Of a stretch of DNA of 64,000 bases, positions 5,421 to 27,881 are shown one piece after another. The notes below the pieces were generated by a model that worked only from the letters and a program-made list of their open reading frames with translations, searched no databases and was not told the origin of the DNA. A program made the translations under genes and the position numbers. Within the stretch, counting starts at the first letter, position 1; each line of letters opens with the position of its first letter. The stretch spans positions 4,030,001 through 4,094,000 of the forward strand of contig CP158635.1 in NCBI GenBank assembly GCA_050273025.1, written 5' to 3'. This DNA is from Cenococcum geophilum. Taxonomy: Eukaryota.

Positions 5421-5452
5421 AATTAAATAGAATTAACAACAGTATATTTATA

Positions 5453-8074
5453 ATATCTTTATCTAGTAGACCTCTGGTACTATATAAAGGAGCTAAGTAA
5501 TAGATTAGTGACGTCCTTGCAGAAGTCAGAGGCTTCGTAGTTAATTAGTGTTAGGTAGTACTCCTCCAAATCTATAACGAGATTCTGCTCTCTTAAGAAA
5601 ACTACGCAGATACTACTAGTATGGTAGTTAATTTTATTAACTAGGATAACGGGCTATAAGCGTCTCTAGGAAGGGACGCGTTCTTATTAATCTTTAAAAA
5701 CATCTCTAACGTTAGTAAGATGGCAAAAGATTAAAGAAATTAGTGTAATAAAGCTAGAGAAACCATCTAAAAGTCCTAGGGATAAGGTGTTCTTAACGGT
5801 CCACTTAAATATGTGGTTTCCTATTACTTCCTTTCTACCGCCTAAAAGCTTACCGTCTACCCACTTTATAAAGTAATGGCATAAGTTAATGAGGCCCTAA
5901 TTAACAGGCTCAAATATCTAGGACGCGGCATTAAGAACACCACTTAACTACAGCCGACCGATTTCGCGCTCGCGCTAAAGATGCTAGGAAGGGCAGTATT
6001 AGACTAGGTAGTAAATAAGCATGGCTTAGAAAGACACTTAACTAACTTCCTTGTTTTAAATAAGGACCTGCCGCTAAAAAGTAGGAGACTAACTACTATG
6101 GGGCTAAAGGTTATTAATATTGGAATTAGATAAATAGGAGAGAGCTTAGCTCTTATACTGCAAATATATTTACGATATGCTTCTAATATAATAAATCCCT
6201 TAGCCTTTCAGCCATCAACACCTGTTTAAAAAGGAGGCATTAGTATTATACTAAGTCCGTTCTAATAAGGGTCACCTATATTAGTTAACTTACCTTTATT
6301 ATCTATAAACGAGAGTATTCTCGCAGCTAGAACGCCTATTGGCTTACCCTTGCGGCTATTAGTATCTTTATTAAAAAGGAATCTAAGAAGAGGGCTAACG
6401 ATTGCTTACCTAGAAGTAGGAGGGCTAGGAGTAGAATCAATATTTAATAAAAACGTTATTAAGCCGGGAGATAATAAGGAGTATATTAAGGAGGCCGTAG
6501 ATGCTATAGCGATACTCCGCGCAAAACGAGGGTATAACTGTAAGGATAATGTGCCTACTTATCTTAAGGCGTCCCTAAACTAAACTACTAAAATTAAACC
6601 AACTAAGGTTATAAAGCTCTTGCGTAGTTAGTATAGGGCAGCTAGTTCTAATCTAAAGATATATAAGGTCTGCTAAATGCATATATAAGCTATAGGAGAA
6701 CGTATGGGTTTAGCGATAAAGGATCTAAACTACGCCGTACTGTGTTATAGACTCCATTTAATATATCACGCTTATAACTACCTCGGCACTATAAAGACCG
6801 ACCCTACTATATACTCTTAGTTTAGAAAGGCTTATAGACCTTTAGTTTTATCTAATTCCTTAGGACTATATAAGTTCATTTATAACTTAGCGCCAAGGTT
6901 TTTATATAATAGAGAGGCTTTGCTTAATTAGATAATGTTACTAAAAGACTAAGAAGTATAGTAGCGAGAAGGATCTGTAATTTTAAACGTGTTTAGATAG
7001 TAGTGGGATTCTAGTATCTTAGTAATAATTAATAAGGAAATGCGTATATACCGCTACTATTAGCGTCTAATTAATAGGCGGCTAAATTACGGCTGGTTAA
7101 GAATAATGGTCTATAGTTTCTACTAATAGCTAATAAGACAAGACCCTTAGTATTATTGTCTCTATTGCGCCCTTAGACCTAACAGCTAATGGCGACTTAT
7201 CTCCTACCCTTATTATATAAAATTCGCAGTTAAAGGAGACTCTACAGCTTTCCGCCATATTAATGTTAATATTCCCTCGCTCCTTAAAAGTAGACGCGGT
7301 GCTAACATAATCTAAAGGAGCGTTTCTCTAGATAATAAGACTAAGGATAACTGTACGATTATTCTACCTAGTATGCATTACCACCTAGAATTATAGTATG
7401 AGGATCTTAAGGCGCGAGGATCGATTAAGGGCGATGGATTTGTTTATAAGATCTCTAACTAAGACTAGACTATTAAAGATGTAGAAAAGTATGCGACCGA
7501 CTAGGTAGCTTAGCTATATGAGAAAGGAGATATGTGTATAACTATGCCTTACCTTCCTTATAAAGTAAAAGGACCTTTAACTAGAACCTAGCGAACAATA
7601 CTACTATAGTTTATTAGTATTTAGGATGATTATAATAACCTTAAGGTTACTAAAGGAGGTACTTAGGTAGAGTTGGCAGATGCGTACTAAGACTTAAAAG
7701 CGCCGCCCCATACGCCGTCTAGATATACCAATCTCTATAGTATAATTCCATATTGCTTCCCTATAGCAGTTAAGCTTATAGCTGCCAGCGCTCTATTTAA
7801 CGCCCTTCTCGGTAAACGACAATAGGATTCTTTAGCGGTAGTTTAAGATTGTAACCTTCTTCTTAATAGCAACGGGAACGAAGTTAGGAAATGGATGCAT
7901 TCCTACCGTCTTAGGGCCGTTAAGAATTATAAAGATGCGTTTAAGCTAATATATACGACTAAGATGGAACGCTTTAATAGCCGCTCTTACTTCTACTGCA
8001 TCGATAATAGAATCAATCCTTTAGCTATTACGGTAGATCTAAGTAGAGTGCCCCTGGTTGTTATAGAAGGATAA
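5453..8074 (+). pseudogene. RIP-inactivated ~874-codon ORF: N-terminal helical region, Cys/His motif, C-terminal PhyH-like 2OG-Fe(II) dioxygenase domain
   Basis: One reading frame is kept at 5522, 6350, 7205 and 8072. De-RIPed text reads ...NYGWLR..QQLMRQDP.YY.LYCALRPD..WRLISYPYY..FRHI(D)VNIP...IQGSVSLD(DE)..DNCTIILP(G)MH...(PC)EKGD....P(H)LP(HGA)KGP...(R)RT. HxD at 7256-7264, distal His at 7559, Arg at 7589-7594. Confidence 0.75.
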
Positions 8075-8536
8075 AGTTATATAAAGTTGCCTAAAGAATT
8101 ATGGGATAGAACTAAGTAAATAGAAGGGTGCGAAAGAGCTATATTATCTAAGAGCCGCCAGTCTGAAGTCTCTCTTGCTGCTTAGCTAAGTAGACGAGAA
8201 CGGTCTTATTTAACCAGAACGGAGTCTCCTCGTTCGCCATCTTAGGTTTGTAGTAAGAGTAAAAAGCGCATATAATTACCTGCCGCGCCTTCATTTCGAA
8301 GATAAGAAGTTTTAGAGTTTCGGAAGTTATTAAGGGATAACGACTTAGGTAGGGGAGGTATATAGTAGTGTGATTTGGCCTCTAGATTTAACATCTAGAT
8401 TAAGCATAGCTTTAGGAGAGCCTAGGCCTTACATAAGTTATATAGATTAGTCTAAAGCCCTTAAAGTCTTTAACAACTCGGACAGGCACAATAGACATAC
8501 AATATACTCTTTTCTTTCTTTTTTACTGCCTGTTCT

Positions 8537-8597
8537 ACTAACTAATTATAACCAACCAACCAACTAACCAACTGACTGACAGACAGATAGACAGCAC
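8537..8597. repeat. Compound tetranucleotide microsatellite (ACCA/ACTG/ACAG)
   Basis: accaaccaaccaactaaccaactgactgacagacagatagacag read directly. Confidence 0.85.
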
Positions 8598-8943
8598 TGT
8601 CACTTTCCTATCTTAGAGAGGTCGTACCCTCCCATAATAGTAACTAAGGTTATATAATATAATCTATATAATTTATAGAATCTATATAATCCGTAATAGA
8701 GTAAATAGAGCACATATATATTATATATAAGAAAGATTTTATAGGAGTACGGTTATATATTTAAGGACCCTTAGTCCCTACCTAGATAGTTCCTTCCTTA
8801 TAATAATTCTTAGAATATAATTAGAGTTAATTTATTAGGCAACTACTCTACTAGTTATTATTACGTTATTAACTTTAATTTACTTTACCTATATACCTAG
8901 CCTAATAACGAGCCTATCGTAGTACTTACTAGGTTTTGTTACA
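8598..8943. mobile_element. Orphan LTR (E) without matching TSD
   Basis: Termini TGTCAC...GTTACA. The right end cuts the minus-strand integrase of element B mid-frame. Flanks AGCAC and CCTAC differ. Confidence 0.6.
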
Positions 8944-11900
8944 CCTACTCTAAAATACTTATCCTAGTGCTTATGGTTATACTAAAGTCTCTATTACTCT
9001 TAGGCATCTTATAGGCTCTACTTTATATACTTTTATTACTCCTCCTATTCCTAAAGGTATTCTTATACTCTTTAGTAGATATCCTTAAACTTCCTAGTAG
9101 GATTCTATAACTAATTATGCGGCCTTAGCCAGTAATTATTAGGTATACTATTAAACCTAAATAGTCGGACGCTATAGGCAATCTAGATTAGTGCATACTT
9201 ATACGATATATATTACTTTAAATTATAAGCGTACTCCGCGTACGGAAGTAGCTTATACTAGTTGTCTTACTAATAGTTTAAATATATCCGTAGGTAAGAC
9301 TCCAGTTCCTAGTTCTGGCGTTCTATTTACCTATTTATCTTTAGGTAAAAAGCCATACTATAACGGTGGTCTATCTTTAAATGGAAGTATAGATCTGACT
9401 AGTACTAACTTATAAAAACACTGCCCCTATTAGTAATAATAGAGTGCGGCTAATCTACTTTAAGAAAGCATTTCTTCTTAATTAGGTTGGCGAGCTCTTA
9501 TATATTAATCGTCTTATTAACAGAAAGGTATTAGACGTACTTTAAAAACCTATTAATAAGTATAAGGACCGAATTATATATTCATCCTTAGCTATCTTTA
9601 AATAGCGGGAGATCCGTAATAAAGTTTATAGTGTAATATCGTTATAGCTTACTAGCGGGGTGAACTAATTTAAGTAGACCCTATGGCTTATGCCTATAGA
9701 TCTTATATACTTAACACTTCTCGCAATAGCTAATATACTCCTTTACTTCCTAATTAAGCCTTAGCCAATATTATTTATATTAAAGTAATTCTACTATTTT
9801 TGCTTAACTATAGTGGCCGCCTAAAGAATTATCGTAATTCTTTATAAGAATCTTCTGTTGTAGATTTACTTCTTATAGCACCTAAACCTTACTATCTTTA
9901 TATAGTAGGCCCATCGGGTTTAGTTCCTAATAGTAGCGCCTAGCAGCTTCCTTTCTATTACGTTTCCGGTCTACTTTTATATTAAGAATAGTATAGAAAG
10001 CGTCCCTTTATTATACCTTACGGATAAGGTCTATTAACCTGTTAAATAGTTCCTAGGTAAAAGCTGTTTTATTCTATACTACTCCAAATATAAAACTAGA
10101 TAGTACTATAGATCTTATAACTCTTTAATATGCGTATATTAGGAAGGCCGCTATAAGGTTAAAGTCCTTTAGTTATTATAGGGCTCCGAGTTCCAATTGC
10201 TCTATAGCTTCGCTATTAGTTTAAGGGGATAGCTTAACAATTAGGGATAGTATATTACCAGGTTCCGAGAATATATTAGGGACGTCCTATTTAAGTATAT
10301 TTAGACCCTTATTAGTAACGGACCGGGTACTAGCTAGAACGTTAGTAAAAACTAATAGGGCTTATACTGCCTAAAACTCGGTATATAGAGCTGTGGGTAC
10401 TTAAGCATTCTATACCTAGAGCTTATTCTATAATATAGGGAGTAAGATATCTATTATCTATTTTCCTTCTCCCGTTTTAAAGCCTTTAGTATAGTCTAGC
10501 CGTTATAACAGTCTATTAGTAAGGTTGTTTTCCCTTAGCTTATATTTAATCTTAAAATTAAACTATATAAGCTCCTCTGCCTATCTAGCTTATTAAAGTA
10601 TAAGCTCCTTTATAGTTAAAAAGTAGCGTAAATTATAATAATCTAAGAGTATATAAGTGGTATAGCTCGCGTGCTTAAGGTAGTGTTGCTACTATTTAAA
10701 GCAGTTAACTATAGCTAGCAGTTCCTTATTATGGGTATAATACCTAACTTTAGGTCCCTAGGATTTTCTATTATAAAATATTACTAGTCTCTAATAGAGC
10801 TAAGTAGCGTCCGGATACCTATTAGGTTGCAGTAAGATACTAATAAGGGCAAAATTTAATATATTAGTAATTATTATTAATGGCTAATTTAGGTTAAAAT
10901 GCCGTAGTAATAAAGCTTCTATAAACTTTATATAAAGTTTCTAAAAGGCCTCCTAAACCTTTCTAGGCTATAACCATAGCTTATACTATTTAGTTAGTCC
11001 CTTTTTAGTTTTCTTCCTTACTACCTTTAAGCTTTTTACTCCTTAGGTTAAGTCTTAGGAAGCTTCTATAATATAATTAAATAGGTATTAGGTAATATCT
11101 AAGTAGTTATAAATAAAACGCCTATAGAAATTGGTAAAGCCTAGAAATACTTAAATATCCTAGTAGCTCTCTAACTCTAGCTACTCCTAGATTATCTACA
11201 CTTATACTAGGTCTATAATTATACTTATAGGCGTTATAATATAACCTAAAAACTTAACCTACTTAGTATTAAAGATATACTTTAATACCTTAGCATAGAG
11301 GCCCTAATTATCCAAACATTCCAGCACTTCGCGGATATATTACTCGTATTAATCCTCGTCTTTTAAGTAAATTAAGATATTATCTAAATAGATAATATAT
11401 ATGCGGTTAACTAGCCCCCCTAAGGCTCTGTAAATATATAATTAGAATATTATAGGCGTATTAGCTAGCCTAAAAGGCATCACTAAATACTTAAAGTGGC
11501 CGTATTAGGTCTTAAAAGCGGTCTTTTACTTATCCCCTTCTTTAATACGGAGCCTATAATAGGCGTCTTATAGATTTAACTTCGTAAAGATCTTCGCCCT
11601 AAATAGTTAATCCAGCATTTTACTAACCAGTAGTAGTAGGTAACGGTTCTTAATTGTAATCTTATTAAGGCCGCGATAGTTTATATATAGCCTTATAGTT
11701 CTATCTAGTTTTAGGATAAAAAAAATTAGCGCGCCTAACGGCGACTTACTAGGCTAGATCTATCCCTTTTCTAGTAAGCCATTAAAGTACTCCCGTAGGA
11801 TCTTAAGCTCTTTATATAAAAGGTTATAAATAGGAAGGTTTGGCGGTTACTTACCTTCTTTTAAATTAATTATATAATTATACTCCAAGTTCTATAGTAG

Positions 11901-14854
11901 GACTTTAGCTCTCCTACCCAAAAATACCCTTAGTAAGTCCCTTAGGCCTACTAGAATATTTAATAAATTAGGGTTGCGTTTATCCTCTGTGTTATTATTA
12001 GGTAAGTCCTAGAGCTCCCTTAAGATACTTACGGGCAGCGTCGTGCGCTATAATAGTTGCTTATACATAGTTGCCACTATATATTAAACCGTTTTATACA
12101 GTAGCCAATAGAGGGTAGGGAACTCCTTAACGCAGCGTTTAAGGTGCTGTAGTATACTCTCCGTATATTACTTAAGCTAGAGTAACTTATAGCGGTTAAA
12201 GTATCTTATAAGATCCTTAAGATCGCCGCCTCCCTATAATATCTCCGCGACCTATTTAGCAGTTCCCTATAGGGTCTCCGTTATAGAGGGGTTATTACCT
12301 ATACTAAGCTCTATACCTATCTTACTATTAAATAGGGGTTAGATTTAATACTCCTTTAGGTATAAAGCGTACACTATTTTACCTAGGGCTATATTCTCTA
12401 GAATATCCTTTAGGCTTATTAGTAATATATACCCTTTTATATCTTTATCGTTTCACTATTTAAAGGCTCCTGTCTTAAAGCGTATCTTAAAATCTACTTC
12501 TATAAGCTAAGGGTATCTAAAAATAAGGTTATAATCTATAAAGTTAGCCGCCTAAAAGGGTTGCGGGCTAACTACCTTAGTGCGGTTGTATATATTAGTC
12601 ATTAATACTGTAAGCTTATAAGCACTATATAGCTTAATCTAATACTTATCTAGAAAGCCTATAATAGATTTCTGCCACCTTTATAATAGGATAAGTTTAT
12701 ACTCTTTTACTAAATTATATTATATAAGATTAATTTCGGCGCCGCTATTATATAGTACTTAGAACTGTTATACCTCACCTATAAAGAGTATTATTTCCAG
12801 CTTAACAGCAATATAGAGAGTCTCTCCTTTTATATCCTGCCCTAGTTATAGCTAGGAAAAGTCCGTAACTAGGGCTTTTTTTTTTTTAGATCGTTAGTGC
12901 AGTTATTACCCTACTTATTTTTCTAATAAGATCTACCTCCGGAGTTTTTTCTTGACTTCTTAAAGTATTTCTATAAAGGTGCTAGATAGGTATCGGGTTA
13001 GCCCTAAAAGTCTTTCCCATTATTTAAGGTTCCTAACTTTAACCCTTCTAAAGTTCTCTTTAAGAACGGCTTTTTTAAAAATTAGGTCTGCCCTATATTA
13101 TTACTAAAGTGCCTACGCTTTTAGTAACCCCTTAGCTTTCTACTAAAAGAGGTCTAGTTCCTTATTATATCTTTAGCGTTCAGAACTACTCGTTTAAAAT
13201 CCGTATATATAGTAATTCGTAATAGGGCTCCTACGCGCTTTATTTTATTATAAATTACTAGCTTAATTCTAGCCTAAATAAACCTAATCTTCTCCTTCTT
13301 ATAGATGCTACCGTCCTTATTTTTAAAGGGCTCTAGATCTATCTACTAAGTATAAGTTTTTATAAAGTTTATAAACTGGCGGAAGTTATAGCAGTCTAGC
13401 TATATCCTATTCCAGAATAGCTTTATATTATTATATTATATAATATACAGATCTTAAGTCTATTTCTTTAGAAAGGTTTATAGCTATAGCTATATAATAA
13501 TTTGCTCTTTATTAAACTAATTAAGTATAATCTAGTTTAGCGATTAGTCTTTAATCTTGCTAATAATCCAGTATATACGCTCTTTAGTATTATCTTATAT
13601 CATTAGTATTTTAAAGAAGTTATTTACCTTATAAACCCAATCGTCTAACTACTGGGCGTTAGGTCTATAGCGGAGTTCTAAACTATTAAAGGCCTTAGCT
13701 AGTCGGTCTATATCCTTTTTCTATTTATAGCGTAGATAACTCTTTAAGTCTTCTATACCTTTTTAGGTAGGTACTAAGTAGCTTCTAAAAAGCCCTTAGC
13801 CTTAACTAGGTTATAAAAGAATTTACTTAGCTTAGATTAGACCCTACTAAATTTAAATTTACCCTTAGAGGGTTCTAATATATTTATTAGTGGCTTTCTC
13901 CTACATAGCTTTTAAGAGCCTTATAATAGCTTCCTAATATCCGTCTTAAAGGAGATTAGTATAAGGCTCTTAACCTTCCGAACTTAGGCTTAGGGAGGCT
14001 CCTACTATAAAGGTAGTATTAGTATTAGTAGCTAGTATAGGCTTCCCAATAAGGCTTAGGTCTTAAGTTAGTAATTAACTTAAATTACCTAAAGGGGTAG
14101 GCCTACTTAGCTTATAAGCAGTTTATATACCACTACTATACCAATTATAGGCCGGTAGTCTTCTAGGAGGGTTCTAGTTAGTTCCCTAGTTAGATATATT
14201 AGTATATTCCTCTAGTATTTCTAACTTAGGGGAAGAACTTAAAGTCGCCTCTAGCGCTTAATCTTTTAATTAACCTAGGTGGGGCCGGAGAGGTTCTAGC
14301 TGCTTTTTAGCAGTATTATAATTATTATAGAGGGTGTTTATATTTTCCTTAGCGTTACTGGTAACTATAGGTATATAAGAGTCTTCGAGCTCCTAGAGCA
14401 TCTAGGTATTAGGGCTTATTTAGCCATCTTGCCTAAAGGGTTATATTGTCGCAATCTTTCGCTATTAGAGGGACCTTCCTATCTTTACGCGACGGCTTTC
14501 TATAAGGTATCCGTGGAGTTTCTATTTAGGTTATCGCGAGATTTTAAAGGAGAATAGTAGTTGTAAATAAAAGATATAAACAAATAATCTGGTTTTTAAA
14601 ACCGACTACTCTTTTAAAAAAGAGTAAGAAAGATTTAAATATAAGGGGATCTTATAGATAGGGGGCTATAAGGACACAATTGGAATAGAATAGATTAGTA
14701 AAAGAGATAAATCCTTAAGGAGGTAAGGCCTTTAGGATTATAGAGATTATATACTACAGGTATGTGCCTTTAGTACGTAACTAGCGACTATCTAAGGGGC
14801 GTCTAGGGGTTGTCCTAAGGGCAACCTAAGATGTCTACAATAATATCCCTTATA
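8944..14854 (-). mobile_element. RIP-degenerated Gypsy/Ty3 LTR retrotransposon B, 3'-truncated, with 5' LTR at 14640-14854
   Basis: Minus-strand motifs: protease (D)SGAEIN ~12731-12750, RT YLD(D)ILI ~11372-11392, RNase H T(D)ASDFA ~10850-10870, integrase (DGQT)ERQN(Q)ELESYLR ~9290-9335. A-run at the gag/pol junction 12876-12887. LTR has inverted ends T(G)TAAGGG...CCCTTA(C)A. Confidence 0.9.
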
Positions 14855-17570
14855 CTAGGTGTTTATAGCTCTTAGTAGGCACTCTACCTATTATTTAGCA
14901 GCAATATAGATACCCCCTTACCGCGGGTAGTAGAGGTTTATATCTTCTAATAGGATAAACTCTATACCTTTAGTTTTAAGTAAGCTTATTACTAATATAA
15001 TATTCTCTGTTTATAGGACTCCTTTAACCCTAGGGTTATATACGTTAATAATCTATACCAGTCCCCTATATACCTGCATTATTATAACTATAATATCTAG
15101 GTTAACTGCCTGCTATAACTATAAGAATAGGCTAATAGCCTTACTAATTATAAAGCACACGCGTATAGCTGCTTTTAGTTTATATAGGAGCTAAAATCCT
15201 TAGGGGCAGTATATTAATTATATATAGGCATTATAATACGGCTCTTATATAGCAAGGATATAGTGTTTCTCTAGGTCTAGGCTATCTAGTAAGGGCCTTA
15301 CAAGATAGTAGTTTGTGTTGCTATAGTTATACTATATAATAGATAGGTAGCAGACCCCCAGTAAGGGTCCTTCACCTCTCCTTTATTCCTTACTTCTCCT
15401 ATTTCTACTTTTTTTAGAATATTTAGAACTTTTATCTCTTATATCTATAACTTAGTTACTACTTATTTTATATAAAGCTTTCTATTCCTATATTTTATAT
15501 TCCTACTAGCGCTTCTATATCTAAATCTGTTATTATCTCTAGTTCTTCCCCTATTCTTACTAGTTGGCTATATACCCTTTAAGAGTTGGCTATAAATGTT
15601 ATATTTACCGCGTTAAGTCTAATTCTTAATTATCCTAGTCTTAAGCTTGCTATAGCTGTCTATAAGGGTCTTCCTATAGGGCGTCCTCTCCCTTATATCC
15701 CCTATAACCCTTATATCCCTATATAGTCTAGTAATATCATATAGCATTACTTCTAGCCTGTTAAGGCTTAGGATAGCTAGCCTAGCCCACTAGTATTAAA
15801 GGTAGGAAACGCTAGAAAGGTACCTGCGCCCCCCTAGCTTATCGCCTATTATTTTTATTTATATAACCTAGCGTATAGTTATTCTCGTAGCTGTTAAGCC
15901 CTTACCTTCTGTCTCCTGTATTTAATACAGTCTTCTCTCTCCTACGCCTTATATGTGCTTTAGTAGCAGTTTACGCATTTTATTTAGTCTTAATTTAAGT
16001 AGTATCTTATATTATTGGGGCCTATATAGTGGCCGCAGCACACCTATACTGCGTATATAGATTAGGTATATCCCTATTATACGCAGCAATAGTATTATTT
16101 TAGGCGAAGTTTATAGTTATAGAGCCTTACGTCATATATAAGGCTATTTATAATAATACCTTTTTAGATAAGGAGTTTTTGCATTTCTAGTATATGTGTA
16201 CTAATAATAAGGGAGCTATACGTTCGACTAGCGTCTCCCTAGCGAGTCTCTAGCGACCCTTATATCCTTATTATTCTTATTATATACTTAGTTTGCATTT
16301 TCCTATTAAAGCTATTAGATTTAGGTAATCTTAAGTCCTAGTATAAGGCGTTCTATTTGTTTTACTATCTTATATATAGTTACTATATTATCTGCCTAGC
16401 GTTCTTTTTCTACCCTAAGGCTTAGGGGGACCGCTAGGATTTTAACTGGGTAATCTTTATAAAGCACTTTTATACTAATACGTTCTCCTAGCCTATCCCC
16501 TACCTTTATAGCTCATTCCTTTGTCTATTAGTCCCTTAGGGCAACTCTAATATCTCCGCTCCTAAGGTGTTAAACTATAATAGCGTTATAGACCTCTTTG
16601 CGAATCTCTATAAGGACTTCTATTTCTAATTATCCCCTAAGCCCCTCTACCTTTTTTATGTTTAGTTATATTATAATTATATACCCAGTTATTATCTTTA
16701 GGGGGGTAGGTACCCTATACTGTAAAAGCGTAGCTACGGCAGCCTAGGTGCGGTTTGCCGGTAAAAAGGAATTTTATTTATTTTTAATTTTGCTTAGCTG
16801 TTAGAGGATTTAATTAAGGGTTTGCTAGAGGGGCGCCTAAGGTTTACTAAACTAGCGGAGCCATTCTGCTAACTATATTAGTTTATTATAGCTAACGGTT
16901 ACTCCCCTATAACTGCAGATACTAAACGCGTCTAATAGGCTTTGTATTTTATTAGATGCCTTCTTAATAGAGGTCTTCCCACTTTATAGTGTAGTATTCG
17001 CCCGTTCTTATTATGGAGGTCTATTACTAGGCGTAGTTCTAGTGGACACGCGCGAATATAAACTACCGTCGCTTGATATATGCCTCCCCTATAATGCATA
17101 TATCTTAACGGGGTTCTCTAGGTATTTTTTAGGGTTCTTTTAGTTAGTTTTGGTCTTTTTGGGCTAGGTGTAGTAAAAGCTCCTAGTCCGCTAGGCTCTG
17201 TTATTATAAATCTAGCTATATATAAATAGCCTATAACCTATCTATAAGGTACTAGCGACCTGCCTATATAAATAAGCTTTTAGAATATTTCTAGTCTACT
17301 AAATTTAGGTAATAGTATTAAGCCCTACTAGCTTTACCTATTAAATAGACTAATTAGGATTTTCTATGCTAGGTATAAAAAATTGCTATTAGCTCGGTTA
17401 AATGCGAGGAAGTTTTAGTACGGTAAATCTAACTAATTAGACAACTTTAACTACTAGTTAAAGTTCCTTAATATCTTTTCGCCGCGTATATATACTACCC
17501 GTCTCTTTATACGCAAAATTAAGACGCTCTTTCCCCTCTAAATTTTTTCCTTACTAAGGTTTTTTATAGG
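14855..17570 (-). mobile_element. RIP-degenerated Tad1-like LINE (5' UTR, ORF1 with three zinc knuckles, start of ORF2 AP endonuclease), truncated by element B
   Basis: Minus strand shows a Cys/His knuckle cluster at ~15930-16100. Endonuclease motifs SII(Q)YN...ILAI(Q)EP lie at ~15235-15345 and LL(G)D(M)NL(HH)PR(W)GG at ~14910-14955. Confidence 0.85.
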
Positions 17571-17579
17571 GTTTTATTA

Positions 17580-17856
17580 AGGCTTAAGTATATAAAGAAT
17601 TAGGAACAACCCTTTTTAATAAGGGGGGCATTATTAGGTAAAACCTAAGTAGATAGTTATATAGCCGTAAGGTATGGGCGACCTTAAGGCAACCTAGGGG
17701 TAACTCGCCCGTAAGGTACGTACTCTATATATACCTAGGGAAAACCCTTCCTACCTCGTATATAGACTCCTTCTTTTCCTTTAAGGATTTATCTCTGTCT
17801 ATACAATATACCTATTGTTCTATTATTAGACTCCCTATTTATATCCTTACCTTATA
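17580..17856 (+). mobile_element. 3' remnant of LTR element D (PPT plus LTR 17632-17856)
   Basis: Purine tract AAGGGGGG at 17621. LTR ends ...TTACCTTATA and shares TTAAGGATTTATCTCT with the reverse complement of the element B LTR. It abuts the RNase H of element C. Confidence 0.65.
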
Positions 17857-20288
17857 CCCGGCTAAGTGTAACTATAAAATATATAATAAGGAAATGCTAG
17901 CTATAATCTAATTATTATTCTAATAGCGCGTAAGGCTTAAAAGCATAAATTTCTAAATTAGGATATATATAGATTATAAAGCCCTAGAGTATTTTATAAT
18001 AATAAAGTAACTTACTAGTTAATGGGCTAAAATACTTTTCTAATTCTTTTTTACAATTACATATTATCCTAGTAGGTAGAACTTCTAGGCTAATACTCTA
18101 ACTTAGAGGGAATAGGACGTAGGTCCTTAAGATAAGCTAAAGTGTAACCAACTACCGGACCTTGCATATTACCCTGTTTCACCTGCGTCAGCACTACCCT
18201 TGCATGTCTCGGATATGGTTCAAATGAGTTATGGGCTTCGGAGTTCGGGGTCTACTTTCATGTATTTATACCACTTGATTTCCATAGATTTACAATCAAG
18301 TTGCTCGTTTAATTCCTACACACTGCAAAGCTTACATAAAGGCTTAGTACTAAATATAGGTACTCTACTATCCTAAATAGCTTAATCTATGGATTTTTAA
18401 GGAGCTATACTCTAAATAAAACAAGCTAGCGCCTATAAAAGAAGAGTCCTTAAACGAGCTAATAGGACTAATTAACTACATTCTAACTATAAACTATACG
18501 GCTAACTCCCTAAAGGCCCTTCGCGATTAAGCCATAAAAGGTAACCCTAATTTAGAAATAGAAGAAGGACTGCTGTTATACTAAGAACGGCTTATAGTTC
18601 CGGATATTAATAAGCTATAGATAGAGCTAATCTATAAAGCCCATTATTAAGTCTCTATAGTATACCCTAGTTAAGATAAGACTTACTAACTACTAATACC
18701 CCATTACTATTATTGGGGACTTTTATTAGATATAGAGCGATTTATTAGAAACTGCTACGCCTATAAACGCGTAGATACCCCTAGGGATTAAACTCCTAAG
18801 TAGTTATAACTACTATTAGTTCTAGTATATCCTTAGCAATATATTATAATAGACTTTAAGTCATTCCTAAAGGACGCCTATGGCTATAATATAGCCTTTA
18901 TAATAATTAACTAACTAAATAAGTAATTCTTCTCCCTCTTTTATTTTAAGACTATGACTATAAAGGATATAGCTTACCTTTATATTAACAATATCTACTA
19001 AATCTACGGCGCTTCTAAATTAATTATCTCTAACCATAGCCCCTAGTTTATATTAGATTTCTAAAACGAGTTCTACTATATTCTTAGGATTAAGATTAAA
19101 CTCTCTATAGTATTTTACCCTTAGACGGATAGCTAAACTAAAATTATAAACTAGTACCTTAACTAGCAGCTATAACCCTTTATAGACTACTACTAGGACA
19201 ACTAGTTGGAATTACTGCCTATAATAGACTACGCGCAGCTTACGCTCCCCTATAATAGTATAGGAATATTATTATTTAAACTGCTCTATGGATATATATC
19301 ACAAGCGTCCTTTAATTAGGATAGATTTACTAAACCCATTATAACTTATAAACGCCTTAATTATAAAGAAGCCTAGATATTTATAAAGAGAATATATAAA
19401 GCCTAAGAGACTACTTAAGCAATTATAAAGAAGGCGTAGAAGAAGAAGGAATCTAATATAAACTAATATTGCCGCAAGGCGGACTTCCAAGTAGGAGATA
19501 AGGTATAGGTATTAATAAAAAACTAGAAAACCTAGAGGCTAAGCTATAAGTTAGACTACTAAACGGCTAGCCTATATAAGATTCTTTAAAGGGGAGGATA
19601 CTCTTTTAGGGTTAAGCTACTAGAATTAATAAAAATCCACCCTATCTTTTCCCTAAACTAACTATAATAGGCTATAGACAACTTATTACCTGGGTAGTAT
19701 AACGACCCTCTACTACTAATTTAGATTGCGAAGGATAAGGAATAGAAAGTTAAAGAAATCCTAGCAGTTAAGAAGATTTATAATATATTAAAATACTATA
19801 TAAGCTAAGTAGGCTATAACGACGACCTAAGATAGTATCCTATATTTAATTTTAAGTACTCTTCTTATAAGCTGTAGGACTTCTACCTAGCCTACCTATA
19901 TCTCCCTAAACCACCACGCAAATTAGAAAACCGGATTAAACACTAGGAAGAAAGGGTAGATAACTATAATAATTTAGATAATAATAGGGAGCTTAGATAA
20001 CGCCTAAGGGCAGGCTTTTTTAGGAGGGGGGGGGGGGTAATGTAACGGTGCTAGGGCGCGTTAGCTATTAAATTCTGCTATACTTTTGCTAACTTCTGCT
20101 AACCAATTAGGATTTTCTATACCCGGCATAGAAAATCGCTATTGGCCCGCTTACTACTAGCGCCTTGGTGACTCCGTTGTATTTACGTTAACCCCTAAGG
20201 GCCTTCTTCTTTTTCTCTTTAGCTTAGTATCTTTGTATAGTAGCAATCTACAAGCTTTGTCTTAGAGGCATTTATACGAGCCTGTTAT
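17857..20288 (+). mobile_element. RIP-degenerated chromovirus-type Gypsy element C (RNase H C-half, integrase, chromodomain, PPT, 3' LTR 20041-20288)
   Basis: PA(E)CNY(E)IY(D)KEMLAI at 17857. HHCC integrase motif ~18630-18770. Chromodomain E(W)(E)V(E)EILAV..Y..(W)VGY at ~19740-19840. G-run PPT 20022-20037. LTR TGTAAC...TGTTA(C)A. Confidence 0.9.
18143..18336. mobile_element. Un-RIPed solo LTR (194 bp) with 5-bp TSD TAAAG
   Basis: Termini TGTAA...TTACA. TAAAG at 18138-18142 and 18337-18341. Retains many CA/TG dinucleotides. Confidence 0.92.
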
Positions 20289-20492
20289 AGTAGGAGTAGT
20301 AGGTAAAAGTCCTTTATATCTTATATACTATATTTATAACGGTCTATATAATTATTTTTATGTTTATAAAAGCCTCCCTAAAATTTATAAAAGCTATAGC
20401 GATAAAACTAGTAAAGGGCTATTAGAGATATTAGGCCTATTTTATAATAATAATAAAAGCGCTAAAAAGGGAAAGAAAAGCAAGTAGCCTAT

Positions 20493-20677
20493 TATAAGGG
20501 GACTTTATAGATAAAGGGCTATAAAGGAGATAAATCCTTAAGAGGGTAAGGCCTTTAGGATTAAGGAGACTATATACTATAGGTAAGTGCCCCTAATACG
20601 TAACTGATGACTATTTAAGGGGTATTTAAGGATTGCCTTAAGGGCAACCTAGGCTAACTATAATAATATCTCTTATA
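20493..20677 (-). repeat. Orphan LTR of the element-B family
   Basis: Colinear similarity to 14640-14854 (GAGATAAATCCTTAAG...GGTAAGGCCTTTAGGATTA...GGGCAACCTA). No matching TSD. Confidence 0.8.
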
Positions 20678-21105
20678 GTGCCACCTCCTTTTATAATTAG
20701 CCCTTAATCACCACTATTTTATAAAGGGAGATTATTATTAAAGACTTGTTTTAAAAGGGGTTTAGAGAGATATTAGCCTACTACTATAGGTATATAATTT
20801 ATATATAGTGATATGCACTAGTATAAGAGATAATAATTTGTAAATAGTTATAATAGCATAATTTAAAGACTTTATAGCGCAAGTGGATAATAATTAGCTC
20901 TTACTATTAGAGCAGCTATAAGATATAAAAAGGGAAAAAACTAAAATGCTATTAATTTAAAATGTTTATAGGAGTAAATTAGGGTTAAATTTTAGTTAGG
21001 TAATATTAATATTTGTATATAGAGAGGTACTGCTAAAATCCGCAATAAAATACTATAAAGCCTATACTACTTTCCTAATTGGGTTAGCTAGCTGGCAGCT
21101 TGACA

Positions 21106-23505
21106 CAGGCTGGTTTTTGATGCTATCGATAAGGCGTTAATTAATAATCGCTATTATTAGTTAATAATTAATAATCATCGATAATTACTTGGCATTATAG
21201 TATGTGCCTGAGGCTAATTAATTTATAAAGGGAACTTAGAGGAAGGCTTCCAGAAAAGGCCCTAATAGTCTCCTAATATTAGATATTATTTATCTAAAAT
21301 ACCACTTTGTTTATAATGTTTTAAACACTTTACCCTCTTAAGGTTTTCTGCTCCCATCTATGCCCTTTCCCATAATACCGTACGATATCCCCCTAAAAAG
21401 ACTCGCTCTGGTTTATCACTTATAGCTAGAATTAAGAGAATATTAATTGCCATATATAATAACCTTGGCTAACGTTTTCTTTATTAATCTTAATACTACT
21501 ATTTAAGCGCTGGCATCTTACTAATATCGTACGGTTCCCTATTATAATAATCTTGGTACTCGTCCTGACTTACTAGTTAAGTATACTTCCCTAGCTTTTA
21601 AGCAATCCGATTAAATACGTTAAGTTCCTACTCCTAAGGTCTCCTTTCGTATAATAGAGGACTTAGAGGAGTAGGAGCTTTTTCCCAATAGGACTCCTAA
21701 AGCTCTTTAACCTTTTTTAATACGGGCTTAACCCACTTTGCTTTCTAGTTTGCCTTAATATACTTTATATAACGGTTTAGATAAAGAATAAGGGTAGTAG
21801 TATAAAGTAGCGACTCGTCCGTTTTACTATAGTACTTATTAAAGGTCTCCTACCCCTTTCTAATTTAAGCGTTAAACTCCTTATTAGAAGCATATTTAGA
21901 CTATTATACGGTATTAGTATTATCTAATTTAAAAGGAAGTTTACTTATAAGCGCGGCTTTAAAGTACTGAATAATAATATCTATAGTAAAGAGTATACTA
22001 TTAATTATTGCGCAGTTACCCTAAGTTTCTAAAGTTGCTCGGTGGAACGGTTAAAGGAATTCCTTAATTATATAAAGCCGTTTCTAGTCTTCCGGAAAGA
22101 GATAGTCTACCTAAAGCGTGGCAAAGTGGTTCTTAGTGTAGGTATTAATAGCTCCCGCCTTTTAATCGGCTATAGCTAGTATTTAAAACCAGCTATTCTA
22201 TCTTATACGGTTATTAAGTGGAATTATTCTCTCCGCTAAATCTTTAAACTCCTTTATACGACTAGCGGAACTGCGGATATGTATAATAATATTATAAAGC
22301 TTACTAAGTGGTTCTATAACCTAAAAGGTTGCCCGTTTCTCCTTTTTATCTACTACCTCTTTTTTTCCTTCTTCTTTATTGTACAACTTAAGTTACTCTA
22401 TTTTAATTAGACTATAAAATAGGAAGGCTTATACGGCTAAATTAATAATATAACTAGTATAGCGGATCCGCCGATATATAGAATCCCATTTAATATCCTC
22501 CTCTTTTTAGAGATAGGCTTTTACTGTATAATAAAGTATATTATTTAAAGTGGCGTTATTACAAACGATAGACCTAAGCTTTTATATAATACTATAGTCC
22601 TTAAGGATTAAGAGAAGAGTAGCGAATTACTTGTTTTTGCTATAGTTTGCCACCGTATAAAGCGCGAGAAGGGCCTTTAAGCGCTTCTCTTAACTATAGT
22701 TAATAAAGTAGGCGCAGATCCCTAGAAGAAGAAGCCTATTTAGGGAGGTCCAGATATTAAGTAAAAGATAAATACTTAATACTGCTAACTAAAGTTTCTT
22801 TTATACGACGTCTTTATAAGTCTGCTAGGACTGCTTAATCTTCTTTATAACTTAAGAGTGTGCTATAGTTATAAAGTCGGATGATTCTGGATTAAGCACT
22901 TAGCAAAAAGTATAAAATTTAGGCTATTTAACAACTTGAAAAGGAAGGTTTTATATAATAATTAGTGTAATTAAAGCCTTATTAATTATATCCTAATTTA
23001 GATGTTTTCGGTAGACTTAAGTATTAATCTCTTCTGTTTGGCCTAAAGACTCTGCTTGGGTATAAAGTTGCTATAGTTAGTAGATAGTTTCTTCTTAAAT
23101 TAGACCTGGAGTTTAGTTAACATATATTCTATGCTTTAACTTAAGATATCCACGCATATTTGTACTAACCGAAGTGCTATACGGTAGTATTGCTATACAG
23201 TATATACAGAACTTATACCGAGAATTCTCTCTATTATGTGCCGTTTAAGTATAGACCTATATTATATAAGCGGATCTACCCCTTCCTTTTAATTTAGTTT
23301 CAACTAAATCGTGGGTAGTTAAAGGCGCAAGAGATAAATTAATTTTAGAATCCATAATTCGTACGAAATAATTAAAGAGAAGAATGGAGTTCAGAAATTT
23401 TGGTTAAGCGGTAAGAATTATTAATAAGAATCGATAATAATCGATTATTGTTGATAACGATTATTAATCGATCTTATCGATAATAAGTTATTGAAAACCA
23501 CACTG
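21106..23505 (-). mobile_element. RIP-degenerated hAT DNA transposon 1 (2400 bp) with 8-bp TSD GCTTGACA
   Basis: TSD at 21098-21105 and 23506-23513. Imperfect TIRs CAGGCTGGTTTTTGA / CAGTGTGGTTTTCAA with subterminal ATCGAT repeats. Transposase starts at ATG 23355 with NR(T)R(W)NSWF ~22185-22212 and dimerisation motif IP-AMSD(E)PERVF(S) ~21395-21435. Confidence 0.93.
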
Positions 23506-23926
23506 GCTTGACAGTTAGAGTACGTTATTTAATAGTTAGCGGACAGCGAGCGATCCAATTGACGCAGTTAGTTAGCTATTTTGCTTAAGATCGCAGCTAG
23601 GCTGACTGTTGGACATACTGGGTTTAGCACTATTGCAGGCTTATTAATGCTTAGCCACTTTAATTATATTTGTGATTAACTAGGAGGCAAGACCGCAAGC
23701 AAAAATGTTTAACTGTAATTTATAGACCCCACCCTTAAGGATCAAATATATCGTACATAGCGGAAGACCTGTCCACTTCTCAAGAATTTAAAAAGACAAG
23801 GACAAGACAAGTATTCCTTGAAACACTATGAAAAGTTTGGATTAGATAAGCGCTCACGCCTAGAAGGGGTAAAGCTTCTAATTTTTCCACCAAACACTCA
23901 GACTGGGATCGCCTCGCAGGTGGGCT

Positions 23927-24430
23927 TTAAAACCCAGGGTAATCACAGCCAGAGAAGTCTGTTAGGCCCGTAAACTTCTTAATAGCGTCTTCCTGACAGT
24001 CCCTTGGCGCAGCACCTTCACTCGTAAAATCTATTATAGCTTTGATTTTCATAGTGACCCAAACTCCATTATTCCCCAAATCTGCGAAAGGCGCATATTC
24101 TTTTAGGTTATCGGCGAAACAGGCATCTTCAACCTCCTTCTTAAACGCATCAACGTGATTATCAGCTTCAGGGAGACCTTTAATCTGAACACCGACGTTG
24201 CGGATCATATCCGGAGGTAGTACGATACTCGAGCTAAGCGAATAATGGACTGTACAGCTAACCACGATTTGAGTGCTAGCTCGAGGTAAGAGGGATTCGA
24301 CGGCTTTTGCTCCTATATCCCCAATGAGGTCTCTAGGAGGAAACATTCCGCCTATGTTATTTAGACCCGCACTGGTAAAGGCGAGAAGATAGGTATAAAG
24401 GAGAAGCAACGATATTTTCGCGTAACGCAT
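23927..24430 (-). CDS. Small secreted protein, 167 aa, 4 Cys (effector candidate)
   Basis: ATG at 24430 gives the signal-peptide-like start MRYAKISLLLLYTYLLAFTSA. Intronless and open to TAA at 23927. No recognised domain. Confidence 0.7.
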   Translation of the reverse strand: MRYAKISLLLLYTYLLAFTSAGLNNIGGMFPPRDLIGDIGAKAVESLLPRASTQIVVSCTVHYSLSSSIVLPPDMIRNVGVQIKGLPEADNHVDAFKKEVEDACFADNLKEYAPFADLGNNGVWVTMKIKAIIDFTSEGAAPRDCQEDAIKKFTGLTDFSGCDYPGF

Positions 24431-25645
24431 TGTAATGGTAATCAGGATAACACAGGTTTGGAGGCGGAAGACTGTGATTGCTAGAATGGAAAAGACCAGG
24501 ATGGAGATTGTGGAAGTTATTATGGTAGAAAAACAGGAAGGGTGCTGACCCAAAGAGAACTGGGAGACGTATTTGCTGATTCTTAAATATTTCACAAAGA
24601 GTAAAGACTGAGTGTCCTGAACTGCCTTGAGTTGTTAGCGGCGTAGTCGTTGACGTGGGGGGGGAAGTCATCTGCCAGCCCGAAGGGGCGGGGCCGTACG
24701 AAGGAGCGACTGTGCCGCTAGCGCGCTTACAACAAAGTTGTTCGTCCATACTATTGGTGCGTTCTATAAACATGGATTCTATCAACGTCAGCTTATTTAT
24801 GGGTCGTGAAACCCAACATCACTAGGATTGGTATTGATTGATGCTCGTGGATATACTTCTACATCCTACAAAAACTAGACCCTCCTGTCGCCTAACTGCG
24901 CCTTCTTCATGCGCAGAACACATCCAATATCACTGGGACAAATGTTCATGACGTGCCGCCTCATTTCAATATTTTCCCATCCTCCCTGATTCAGTGTTCC
25001 CCCGAAACAAACCTATTAACGCGATACACAGCATCATTTAATGGCACGCTGCCGTCTTCTAATCGTGACATTGTAATAGGACTGTCTAGTATAAGTCCTT
25101 TCGGTATTCATATAGCTACAGTTAGTTGCAAAATTTATTTCGCCTAGCAAGCCGTCTAACATCTGATCGCGAGGCTTGCTATTGCAACATGAAAGCGGCA
25201 TTCTCATATCTGTCCCTATCGTATGATTCGTACGAGATGGTTGGCTTGATGCGCCACCCCTGAATACACTTGAAAACTATTGTTTCATGTTAGAGCGCCG
25301 CTCACGAAAAACAGGCAACAAACATTGTCCGCTTATACCAACAGCATATTTCATGTTGATTCTGTGTCCACCTTAAGTCCGTGAAGGACAGATAACTGAC
25401 TTTAGACGTCAGGATGCCTTTTTTAGAAAGAAGAAACCGTATTCAAACAGATCCTTAGCTAGCGAGCATAAAGAGGAAGCAAAAAGACATATAAGACCAT
25501 AATCCACCTTGTAAAACCAACCGTCTGATTCCCACTCATACTCACAGGTGTCAATATACCTACTCTTACCTAATATCTATCGCCATATTGCCTTTACCAC
25601 ATTGAATTTTGTTTCTAACCTATATTGCATCCCATCTCGAGCATT

Positions 25646-26398
25646 ATGCTTTATCGGCGAGCAAATTTTCCATCAGCACGCTATTTGGGCTATCTACTTC
25701 CACTTCTCACAAGTATATTGCTCCTAGGATTCATAGATTCTGTTATAGGAAAGGCAATCCCTCTTCCTTTTCCATTCCCAGCAGACAACTCTCCTCCGGA
25801 TACATCATACAATCCTCCGGCACCAGAAGGCGCTTTGCCTATCCCAGCCAACCCATTAAATATTAACAAAGACTGGTTCCTTTCATATCTGACAAAAAAT
25901 CAACCGGAAAACAATTGTGTATTCTACTGCCGTATAACCAATCCGGCTAGGGATTGGATAAAACTAAACCCACCGTTAAGGACAATCTGGGAAACCTATC
26001 CTGCTTTTTTGTTTTTGGATGATAAGGAACCTAGGAAGTCCTTCGCTGATGCGGACAAGCAAGCGAGGGCCCAGAGTGGCAAGGAAGAATATCCGAACTT
26101 GAACAGATATGCCGCGATGTCATCAGAAGCCTATGCGGAAAGATGTCTGGGAACAACAGTCCACCTGCTTCTTGACGAGAACATAGGCATTCCGGAACAG
26201 TGCATCTGGAATTCGGAGGAAAAGGTGGCGCTCCTACGAGAACCGAATCCGATCCAGAAGGTCATAGAGATCACATTTAAGGCGGGCACAATGATAGAAA
26301 AGTCAAGAAGGGAGTATGCGCTCGCGGAAGATGAACCGGCATCTCCTTCGACATCTCCTTCTTCAAGTCCGACTGACGAACCGTGGTGCCAATCCTAG
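25646..26398 (+). CDS. Secreted protein with ADP-ribosyl cyclase/NAD-glycohydrolase-like domain (N-terminal part of a formerly longer gene)
   Basis: Hydrophobic N-terminus and Pro-rich spacer, then CVFY...TIWETY...SSEAYAERCLGTTVHLLL...CIWNSEEKVAL. This resembles the CD38-type S..FA....V.V.L...STFGSVEV core. Confidence 0.55.
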   Translation: MLYRRANFPSARYLGYLLPLLTSILLLGFIDSVIGKAIPLPFPFPADNSPPDTSYNPPAPEGALPIPANPLNINKDWFLSYLTKNQPENNCVFYCRITNPARDWIKLNPPLRTIWETYPAFLFLDDKEPRKSFADADKQARAQSGKEEYPNLNRYAAMSSEAYAERCLGTTVHLLLDENIGIPEQCIWNSEEKVALLREPNPIQKVIEITFKAGTMIEKSRREYALAEDEPASPSTSPSSSPTDEPWCQS

Positions 26399-27474
26399 CC
26401 CGAATGGGGAAAGGGATCTCTCTTGCTTGGCATCTTTTTCAAGTACGATCTCTACAACTATTCCGCCAGGCCTGACGTCTATGTTATCAAGTGCCACACC
26501 TATAAGCACTCCCCAAATCTCCTACTGTTGACCTGAATCGGATTTCGTTACCACCGTCTTACTACTGTCTTACTACTGTCTTTAATGCCTAGTACTTTAT
26601 GTCTTACCATCCAGTTCCTATTACCTATTTTGTTTCGGTTGCCAATTATATGTCTCTGTTGCCTGCACCAACCTCATCTCTATATAGAGAGCTTCTAGAG
26701 CCAGATTCAATTGACAGAGTTCTCATTCCTGATCGTCCGTTCAACGCCTACACTTATACGGATTTTTTTTGATCACGATGTTATCGCATGCGAGTCTGTT
26801 CCTTTGGGCAATTACGGCGGCTTTACGGAGACCTGCGCAGGCAGTTCAGTAACGCTCACTTTTGCCCCATCAGCTACCGTGCAAGTCGGCAAAAAATAGC
26901 AAAACGTTGGGACTTTAAACGGAACTGCTTTATACACCTCTATATCCAGCGCTCTCAACAAAATCTGTCCTACTGCTACGGAGAATTGGGCGTCATGTTC
27001 CACGACTACGGTGGCGATCAAACAAATCGTCTACATAGAAGGAGATGGCACCCGCGGGGAAGACGGCGAGCTTGTTGTCAGCGTGCAAAGCGGCTCATAC
27101 AACGATACGAAACTCCGCGATGCTATGATTAAATCCGCTGCCCTCACGGCACAAACTTCAGCCAACAGCACAAACTGTTACCAGACGAAATATATTTTAT
27201 GCGAGAAAGGCGAGTGCGGAGAGGAGAAGATAACTTTGTGCAACGCCGCCGGTTTCGCCGGCGTGCAGTACTACGATGGGGCGCCAGTCGCCGCGACAAT
27301 GTGGCTCGATGTGCTTTGGGAATTCGGGGTCTATTCAGGGGAGTCTTTGACTGCGAAATCATCATCGAGACTCTCGACGCATTTCTTGTAGAATTCGCTC
27401 CTGAATTTGTGGTGGAAGATGTAGCGCTCTGTGAGGGGCGCCAGGCTGCATGCCAGGACGTGCTTGGCAATTGA
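26399..27474 (+). pseudogene. Disrupted Ser/Thr linker and Cys-containing C-terminal extracellular domain of the upstream secreted gene
   Basis: Removing the LTR joins ...PQISY to TYTD. Lesions: extra T in the run at 26763-26770, TAG at 26897, frameshift near 27340. Protein-like text NVGTLNGTALYTSISSALNKICP...LCNAAGFAGVQYY...FDCE...APEF. Confidence 0.7.
26526..26746 (+). mobile_element. Solo LTR with 5-bp TSD CCTAC
   Basis: Termini TGTTGA...TCAACG. CCTAC at 26521-26525 and 26747-26751. Homologous to 59482-59644. Confidence 0.9.
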
Positions 27475-27881
27475 AGGCCTGACATAGAAGGCCAAGTGTG
27501 CGGATTGGAGGGGGTAATAGTCTGGAGTCAAACAGTTTGCTTGTTTGCTTGTCTTGATTGTTTGCTTGTGGTTGAGTACTCCTGCGAGTCTGGGTCTGTT
27601 TGTCAGTTTGTCTTGCATTCCTTTGCCTACATAGATTGTCTTGGAGGCAGCTGTCCGTGCTATGTCTGATACGGACCGTATCTTTACGGAACTGTACTGT
27701 GCCATAGTAGACTTTGCCTACCAACCAAACCCTTAGGAACTCTTAATTTTTTTTCAACAACTTTAGCTGCCTAGGACGTCAGCCAGGGTTTCAGGTGCTG
27801 CAAAGAATGACAGGCAATTTATTTAGCCCAGGAGTGGGCGGACATTACGATTATACAATTTACTTTATCTCACGGCATCCC

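Follow-up and report, generated by a model that had tools for sequence, protein, structure and literature searches.

A candidate secreted ADP-ribosyl-cyclase-fold protein encoded by a truncated precursor gene in Cenococcum geophilum

Gene content and transcription of the locus

The window analysed here is a stretch of 64,000 nucleotides of Cenococcum geophilum DNA (contig CP158635.1, positions 4,030,001 to 4,094,000), and its plus strand carries at 25646..26398 a single-exon open reading frame that starts with an ATG at 25646, ends with a TAG at 26398 and encodes a protein of 250 residues, P0001. A preliminary description drawn from the sequence had treated this frame as a complete gene; it is instead a transcribed, truncated allele that retains the front half of a longer precursor. 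The first 35 residues (25646..25750) resemble a signal peptide in hydropathy and alignments, with a basic N-region ahead of a hydrophobic stretch at residues ~14-34 (Kyte-Doolittle values of up to 2.08 per 11 residues) and a cleavage before KAIP suggested by homologs. The signal-like N-terminus of the preliminary description thus reappears in the Kyte-Doolittle profile, and P0001 is predicted from hydropathy to be secreted. A Pro-rich, probably disordered spacer (25751..25828; pLDDT below 50 at residues 27-55) leads to a domain at residues ~62-229 (25829..26332) that profile and structure matches assign to the ADP-ribosyl cyclase (ARC; CD38/Tox-ARC) fold. The four motifs on which the preliminary description had relied are all present where it had placed them: CVFY at residues 91-94 (25916-25927), TIWETY at 113-118 (25982-25999), SSEAYAERCLGTTVHLLL at 159-176 (26120-26173) and CIWNSEEKVAL at 186-196 (26201-26233).

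Head-to-head with this gene, on the minus strand at 23927..24430, lies the gene for P0012, a multicopy, predicted secreted protein of 167 residues with 4 Cys and a modelled alpha/beta sandwich, which we regard as a candidate partner. The resulting two-gene cassette adjoins an AT-rich block without strand assignment (1..23600; GC 0.34), considered here as context only, which bears a RIP signature. RIP damage to the P0001 gene, located about 2 kb from this 24-kb block, was rejected as an explanation, the composite RIP index being -0.82 in the gene versus 1.26 in the block. Ordinary conserved genes occupy 29358-49776 and include a protein kinase identified through Pfam, together with others that, by resemblance, we take to be Ric8-, Rif1-, aldose-epimerase-, Rei1- and HECT-like.

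At least half of the sampled words were present in 20 of the 24 RNA runs listed, and four runs were compared with the window. One contig of run X5 covers 24922-26582 without differences and skips the 194 bases of a plus-strand GT..AG intron at 25121..25314, which falls in the 5' UTR of the P0001 gene. Reads of the stranded run X21 over 25469-26002 are oriented opposite to those of two minus-strand neighbours, as expected for a plus-strand transcript. The ARC gene is transcribed from the plus strand. A contig of run X1 crosses the same intron unspliced, and DNA or pre-mRNA may therefore contribute to the signal. Contig depth, a poor measure of expression, is about 10 for the ARC gene versus 90-240 for the kinase and about 760-2,700 for contigs matching P0012 exactly. 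Four reads of run X21, derived from a diverged strain or a paralog, skip 26339-26382.

Predicted fold and active site

Homology searches recovered four proteins closely related to P0001, with 66-81% identity (5 of 312 candidates, including the query), and eight representative sequences among 1.84 billion, reaching P0010 (29% identity) and P0011 (24%). Both of these distant homologs are stand-alone proteins, of 213 and 265 residues respectively, and P0011 comes from the ascomycete Vezdaea aestivalis. The alignment stayed shallow because a wider word-index search with profile A3 returned 7 of 4,845 candidates and no new family members; as far as these searches reach, the ARC family around P0001 is small. 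With P0001 or P0010 as query, at least one ARC copy was detected in G000 and no second one, these copy counts being lower bounds.

Used alone, P0001 gave no match in Pfam (no family at E ≤ 1), in the PDB with phmmer or in NCBIfam, and its residues 66-228 had none in the ESM Atlas. The Pfam family of CD38 and Aplysia cyclase, which we take to be Rib_hydrolayse, was not reached by P0001, P0006, P0010 or P0011, for which no family was returned at E ≤ 1. Profile A3, built from six fungal sequences without any ARC input, nevertheless had Aplysia cyclases as the top five of its ten PDB matches (E 6.4e-5 to 2.5e-4), eight of the ten being ARC proteins and the other two antibody chains. With profile A2, also restricted to fungal sequences, all seven PDB matches at E ≤ 10 were ARC proteins. 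The fungal profile hence reaches Aplysia ADP-ribosyl cyclase at E = 6.4e-5, in agreement with the family placement put forward in the preliminary description.

An AlphaFold2 model of P0001, which rests on 8 sequences, had a mean pLDDT of 67, with most core blocks at 72-90. All 41 matches listed in a Foldseek search with this model were Aplysia cyclase, CD38, BST-1 or ARCtox (best E 2.9e-3, probability 0.99), and none among them reached E ≤ 0.001. Comparison of the model with 48,161 chains by VIA yielded Z ≥ 5 for five chains, every one of them ARC-type: Aplysia cyclase (7.8), ARCtox (7.3), BST-1 (7.2), porcine CD38 (6.3) and the bacterial NADase domain 8ka2 (6.2). The first non-ARC chain in this ranking was a TIR domain at Z 4.2. 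A second look with VIA gave Z 8.6 for Tac1 (9ouf, labelled 'Ribonuclease' in the PDB; PMC12356396) at rmsd 3.7 over 130 aligned residues, Z 8.1 for ARCtox (9ro8; rmsd 3.2, 119 aligned) and Z 7.9 for Aplysia 3i9k (rmsd 3.7, 151 aligned), values that taken alone are middling, scores of 7-8 being frequent between unrelated folds. Because the sequence profiles and the structure searches agree, a two-lobe, flavodoxin-like ARC fold is supported for the modelled P0001, and this predicted fold together with the catalytic Glu argues for its membership in the ARC/CD38-like (Tox-ARC) family. The CD38-like fold for which the preliminary description had proposed an AlphaFold and Foldseek check was recovered, ARC-family chains filling the Foldseek matches listed and also ranking first in VIA, and the distinction it had drawn from TNT-type NADases stands, given that there is no TNT match in Pfam and that the best structural matches are ARC-fold chains.

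Alignment with Aplysia cyclase, in which one of the structures (1r0s) is a Glu179Ala mutant, pairs Tyr94 with Trp77, Trp115 with Glu98, Glu116 with Asp99, Ala156 with Trp140, Ser160 with Ser144 and Glu192 with Glu179. These Aplysia residues presumably correspond to W125, E146, D147, W189, S193 and E226 of CD38. The predicted catalytic glutamate, Glu192 (26219..26221), also aligns with ARCtox Glu356 through P0010, whose alignment with ARCtox agrees on the last two motifs and has the published W323 to E356 spacing. Profile alignments place Tyr94 (25925..25927) as a conservative change. At Trp115-Glu116 (25988..25993), sequence alignment puts Trp in place of the second, cADPR-hydrolase Glu (CD38 E146, Tac1 E516, ARCtox E299); Thr113, Glu116 and Thr117 are in register with T-L-E-D-T, and the Trp occupies the first acidic place. 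The short notation of the corresponding [ST]..[DE] motif, in the accessible part of Zhang et al. 2012, is ambiguous as to which acid it denotes. At 26111..26125, Ser160 is kept and Ala156 has lost the aromatic side chain of Aplysia Trp140 and ARCtox Trp323. The second Glu of WNSEE, named as catalytic in the preliminary description, is Glu192 and in register with both Aplysia Glu179 and ARCtox Glu356; the accompanying by-eye motif match was thus correct for this residue and broke down at the Trp of TIWET, which stands at the second Glu of TLEDT, and at the third motif, where Trp has become Ala.

Glu192 is invariant in all eight sequences, down to 24% identity, and in all nine close sequences, and the conserved central-helix residue Ser160 is likewise invariant in eight of eight. 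Trp is found at position 115 throughout the nine close sequences, whereas P0010 and P0011 have Trp and Tyr there, respectively, and an aromatic residue at both the Trp115 and the Ala156 sites. Since the changed residues are fixed in the nine close sequences, they represent a lineage trait and not decay. Only one of the four key residues of ARCtox and CD38 (two Glu, two Trp), the catalytic Glu, is identical in P0001, and the two Trp that mark Tac1/ARCtox-type toxins (ARCtox W273 and W323) are replaced by Tyr94 and Ala156. Mutational work on Tac1 found only Glu573 to be essential: in E516A, which lacks the second Glu, hydrolysis is slower and cADPR is released, and W540A is strongly impaired, as slow as the second-Glu mutant, with cADPR undetectable (PMC12356396). 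In ARCtox, substitution of each of the four key residues abolished toxicity in E. coli (PMC12605009). Judged by its aligned active site, P0001 is not an enzyme of the Tac1/ARCtox type, and the remodelling points to a slow or cyclase-leaning enzyme, or to an altered substrate.

Precursor, neighbouring gene and allelic history

P0006 (602 residues) and the open frame of locus L002 (586 residues) run on beyond the ARC domain, with a second stretch of similarity to the window at 26765-27465. P0001 is the surviving front half of a precursor of about 590 residues, comprising the ARC domain, a Cys-KR-Cys loop, a linker and a variable C-terminal domain; the rear half of this precursor is in decay at 26388-27465. 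A frameshift at ~26,380-26,390 puts the last residues of P0001, WCQS, out of frame. It is followed on the plus strand by what is left of the Cys-KR-Cys loop and Ser/Thr linker, out of frame and detected by tblastn (26388..26510), by a short repeated element without strand assignment that replaces part of the linker (26526..26745), and by the decayed C-terminal domain (26765..27465), which carries one stop and one further frameshift in the window and is in frame in L002. The syntenic locus L003 shares the truncation, its C-terminal remnant still being open, and no second copy of this remnant was found in G000. The element at 26526-26745, recognised from loose contig ends and high RNA depth, is a dispersed repeat that has a second copy at 59500-59643 and, in RNA runs, high coverage and a wide variety of flanks; the copy in the dead linker is common to L003. 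A contig of RNA run X3, from the minus-strand kinase transcript, crosses a CT..AC intron (27767-27843) into 26716-27766, antisense to the dead C-terminal remnant.

Directly after the ARC domain, six longer sequences (P0003, P0004, P0005, P0006, L002 and L005) have the pattern Cys-x(7-9)-Lys-Arg-x(3-12)-Cys. Nicked two-chain toxins have a dibasic site enclosed in this way by a disulfide, and by this analogy we infer that Kex2 would cleave the full-length relatives into an enzyme chain and a second, binding chain tethered by a disulfide. The module behind the loop is exchangeable, because some relatives (L002 at 6001-7758, P0006 and the window at 26765-27465) have a Cys-rich domain of ~240 residues, for which no Pfam family scored above cut-off, and others (L004, L005 and P0005) join the same N-terminal enzyme to a Fungal_lectin_2 region (PF18647), the lectin-like second chain of L005 being matched at E 2e-14. 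The truncated allele would give nearly the same enzyme chain without its tether.

P0012 has 33 homologs, the named ones being from Cenococcum geophilum (92% identity) and Lepidopterella palustris (56-60%), which points to a Cenococcum-like dothideomycete as the probable host, and is characterised by 4 invariant Cys and a disordered pro-region ending in LxxR, presumably a Kex2-type motif. It had no Pfam or NCBIfam match, and the fold search with its model, a generic alpha/beta sandwich as predicted, returned only generic ACT/ferredoxin-like matches (best Z 6.7; Atlas scores below 0.9), none standing out. In all five ARC loci with DNA, a P0012-type gene lies head-to-head with the ARC gene at 1,074-1,215 bp; because the five loci share one block by descent, this linkage does not represent five independent events. 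G000 contains five intact P0012 copies and one fragment, each in a different gene context, and four of the intact copies, as well as the fragment, have no ARC gene within ~4.5 kb. Three subclades accommodate the linked copies, and each of them also includes a solo sibling from G000. This distribution is what orphan immunity genes would show, and is no less compatible with an abundant effector that is independent of the ARC gene and at times accompanies it. Inspection by eye of the two-gene block found neither terminal repeats nor a clear mobile-element boundary. Related 12-base tandem repeats, read as EALH or CTKL depending on frame, occur near two solo P0012 copies (L014 9205-9700 and L015 5730-6500).

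Within the ARC gene, the motif blocks (52 codons, in part picked once conservation had been seen) gave pN/pS values of 0.08, 0.00 and 0.27 against L002, L003 and L005 (Fisher p = 0.011, 0.012 and 0.009, respectively), and the loops at residues 99-112 and 120-152 (25940..26101) gave 1.17, 1.11 and 0.48. The two loop values above 1 were not significantly so (p 0.8-1.0) and do not demonstrate positive selection; the 3' remnant stood at 1.04 against L002, and dN/dS over the whole ARC core at 0.72-0.92, with intervals spanning 1. The motif blocks are under purifying selection and the loops within residues 99-152 are hypervariable; the purifying signal may predate the truncation. A shuffle test of the motif pattern (0 of 20,000) carries no weight, being circular because the pattern was derived from P0001 itself.

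From 26120 onwards, the window and L003 are 97-100% identical, with one bin at 93% and a kinase dS of 0.028, versus only 81-91% from 23620 to 26120. The step in identity, at ~26100, falls inside the ARC gene (70 mismatches in 460 bases before, 8 in 290 after; p = 6e-9), and the divergent block at 23620-26100 is mostly closer to L002 than to the syntenic L003, which suggests that conversion or recombination between cassette copies produced it. Two of the four related loci, L004 and L005, have dead ARC genes with a common TAA stop at codon 79, next to an intact P0012-type gene. Such a pattern of birth, death and reshuffling is typical of conflict genes.

Functional interpretation

Tox-ARC domains were listed in Ascomycota and Basidiomycota in 2012, as gains from bacteria independent of those in animals, and share with P0001 the flavodoxin-like ARC fold and the conserved Ser and Glu, as given in the accessible text of Zhang et al. 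2012 (PMC3482391). P0001 probably belongs to this fungal branch; the Tox-ARC passages available from that paper make no mention of its precursor architecture, its altered active site or its head-to-head neighbour and contain no description of an individual fungal member, just as the available supplement text has no ARC content. The literature searched, in which most subscription journals fall out of scope, yielded no characterised fungal ARC protein. The 2025 JBC papers on bacterial ARC toxins do not mention fungi (PMC12356396, PMC12605009), the accessible parts of PMC11187862, PMC8415550 and PMC9503650 describe no fungal ARC enzyme, and 'ribosyl cyclase' was absent from the fungal secretome literature among the matches listed.

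Comparison with characterised systems delimits what such a protein might do. Tac1 (PDB 9OUF; PMC12356396) and ARCtox of Pantoea ananatis (PDB 9RO8; PMC12605009) have the same compact two-lobe core and IW-x-x-x-E catalytic motif as P0001, but keep both Glu and both Trp where P0001 has Trp115 and Ala156; they act in the cytosol as fast NAD(P)+ hydrolases after delivery by T7SS or T6SS and carry the toxin at the C-terminus, whereas the ARC domain of P0001 is N-terminal, behind a predicted signal peptide. Aplysia ADP-ribosyl cyclase, CD38 and BST-1/CD157 resemble it in providing the best profile match, in motif order and spacing and in ecto-location, and differ in structural identity (10-19%) and in a larger N-lobe that P0001 lacks. 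The closest functional analogue is Nac1 of Actinophytocola oryzae, likened here by its published description and not by sequence, which has a signal peptide, keeps the catalytic Glu, lacks the second Glu, forms cADPR and ADPR in similar amounts and is non-toxic to E. coli (PMC12356396); unlike P0001, it is bacterial and has Ala, not Trp, at the second-Glu site. The fungal surface NADases with a TNT domain are, like P0001 as proposed, fungal, extracellular and NAD-cleaving, but have an unrelated fold and mechanism and are pure hydrolases incapable of forming cADPR, according to the accessible text of PMC11187862.

On balance, we favour the reading that P0001 is a secreted ARC-family NAD(P)+ glycosidase that uses Glu192 and works slowly, with mixed ADPR and cADPR output, outside the hypha and on microbial or plant partners. 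NAD+ would bind between the two lobes, the nicotinamide-ribose bond of NAD(P)+ would be cleaved outside the cell with departure of nicotinamide, and Glu192 would stabilise a ribosyl intermediate resolved by water to ADPR or by adenine to cADPR; Trp115 may stand in for the missing indole. A slow enzyme with Nac1-like output is likelier than a fast toxin of the Tac1 type because the second Glu has become Trp and the stacking Trp has become Ala. In full-length relatives, the loop would link the ARC domain to a C-terminal module that can be exchanged and that some relatives have in lectin-like form; the truncated allele, having no binding chain, would set the enzyme free. A part in biological conflict, or in interactions with a plant or microbial partner, would be consistent with the hypervariability of the loops, the mosaic structure of the alleles and the presence of dead paralogs.

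The same active site could instead belong to an ARC-fold protein of changed chemistry, in which the pocket is kept for binding and not for NAD turnover: a pseudo-enzyme, a binder of an NAD-type ligand or an N-glycosidase for NMN, nicotinamide riboside or a nucleoside. Two of four key residues are replaced in all nine close sequences, a bulky Trp fills the second-Glu site, and at these sites one substitution is enough to cripple either Tac1 or ARCtox; we still consider this unlikely, in that no homolog has lost the sole residue essential in Tac1 (Glu573), Nac1 is active without the second Glu, and the distant P0010 and P0011 retain an aromatic residue at the Ala156 site. That the resemblance to ARC proteins is a chance match to a common alpha/beta fold, such as TIR, nucleoside deoxyribosyltransferase (NDT) or flavodoxin-like domains, would be in line with the weak single-sequence signal, Z values below 9 and Foldseek E values above 0.001. 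It is nonetheless highly improbable, with the sequence profile and two structure aligners independently placing ARC proteins first, a drop in Z from 6.2 to 4.2 separating them from TIR and NDT folds, and the catalytic Glu in register.

The genomic context raises two further explanations. The locus could be a polymorphic toxin-partner cassette in which the ARC protein depletes NAD in competing microbes, P0012 is its cognate inhibitor or escort and the solo copies act as orphan immunity against other ARC types. Nuclear toxin cassettes have a precedent in the zymocin-like toxin gene clusters of filamentous fungi, as far as the available text of 10.1101/2024.10.25.620242 goes, and immunity proteins with various folds block the cleft of bacterial ARC toxins. 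The cassette explanation would account for the constant head-to-head arrangement, the solo sibling of each linked subclade, the intact partner beside the dead ARC genes of L004 and L005, the far deeper RNA coverage of P0012 and the hypervariable loops and mosaic alleles. We regard it as rather improbable, as the five loci share their block by descent, four of five intact P0012 copies in G000 stand apart from any ARC gene within ~4.5 kb, a secreted inhibitor would leave cytosolic NAD unprotected, loop pN/pS is only ~1.1 and not significantly above 1, and the active site is unlike those of fast toxins. Alternatively, if the precursor needed its C-terminal domain, P0001 would be a decaying pseudogene whose front half has simply so far escaped a disabling mutation. 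The 3' half, with its frameshift, repeat insertion, stop and second frameshift, the dead paralogs L004 and L005, the low RNA depth and a truncation shared with L003 that may be recent (97-100% identity 3' of 26120) would agree with this. Yet L002 and L003 differ from P0001 by only 0-1 amino-acid changes in the motif blocks (a selection signal that could predate the truncation), the break immediately precedes the KR site, at which the domain would be severed in any case, stand-alone homologs exist and the gene lacks a RIP signature, so that decay also appears quite improbable.

A more elaborate scheme, which is speculative and rather doubtful, would combine these elements into a secreted two-chain ARC enzyme nicked by Kex2, composed of an NAD-cleaving chain with a cADPR-leaning site and an exchangeable glycan-binding chain, encoded head-to-head with its own secreted inhibitor or escort, with solo copies covering other ARC types and alleles reshuffled by recombination within the enzyme gene. 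If true, such a cassette would provide the first case of a fungus, here probably a root symbiont, that supplies cADPR acting on its neighbours or its host plant. In animals, and also in plants, cADPR is a calcium messenger. C. geophilum is described as the most frequent tree-root symbiont in the accessible text of PMC5023957, and the slow secreted glycosidase that we favour could be directed at soil microbes or operate where fungus and root meet. If active, P0001 would constitute a second class of fungal ecto-NADase beside the TNT enzymes, in principle able to make cADPR, and its locus offers a small, intronless and expressed test case for fungal ARC proteins, in which the natural pair of Trp-for-Glu and Ala-for-Trp replacements tests how far a CD38 active site can be rebuilt.
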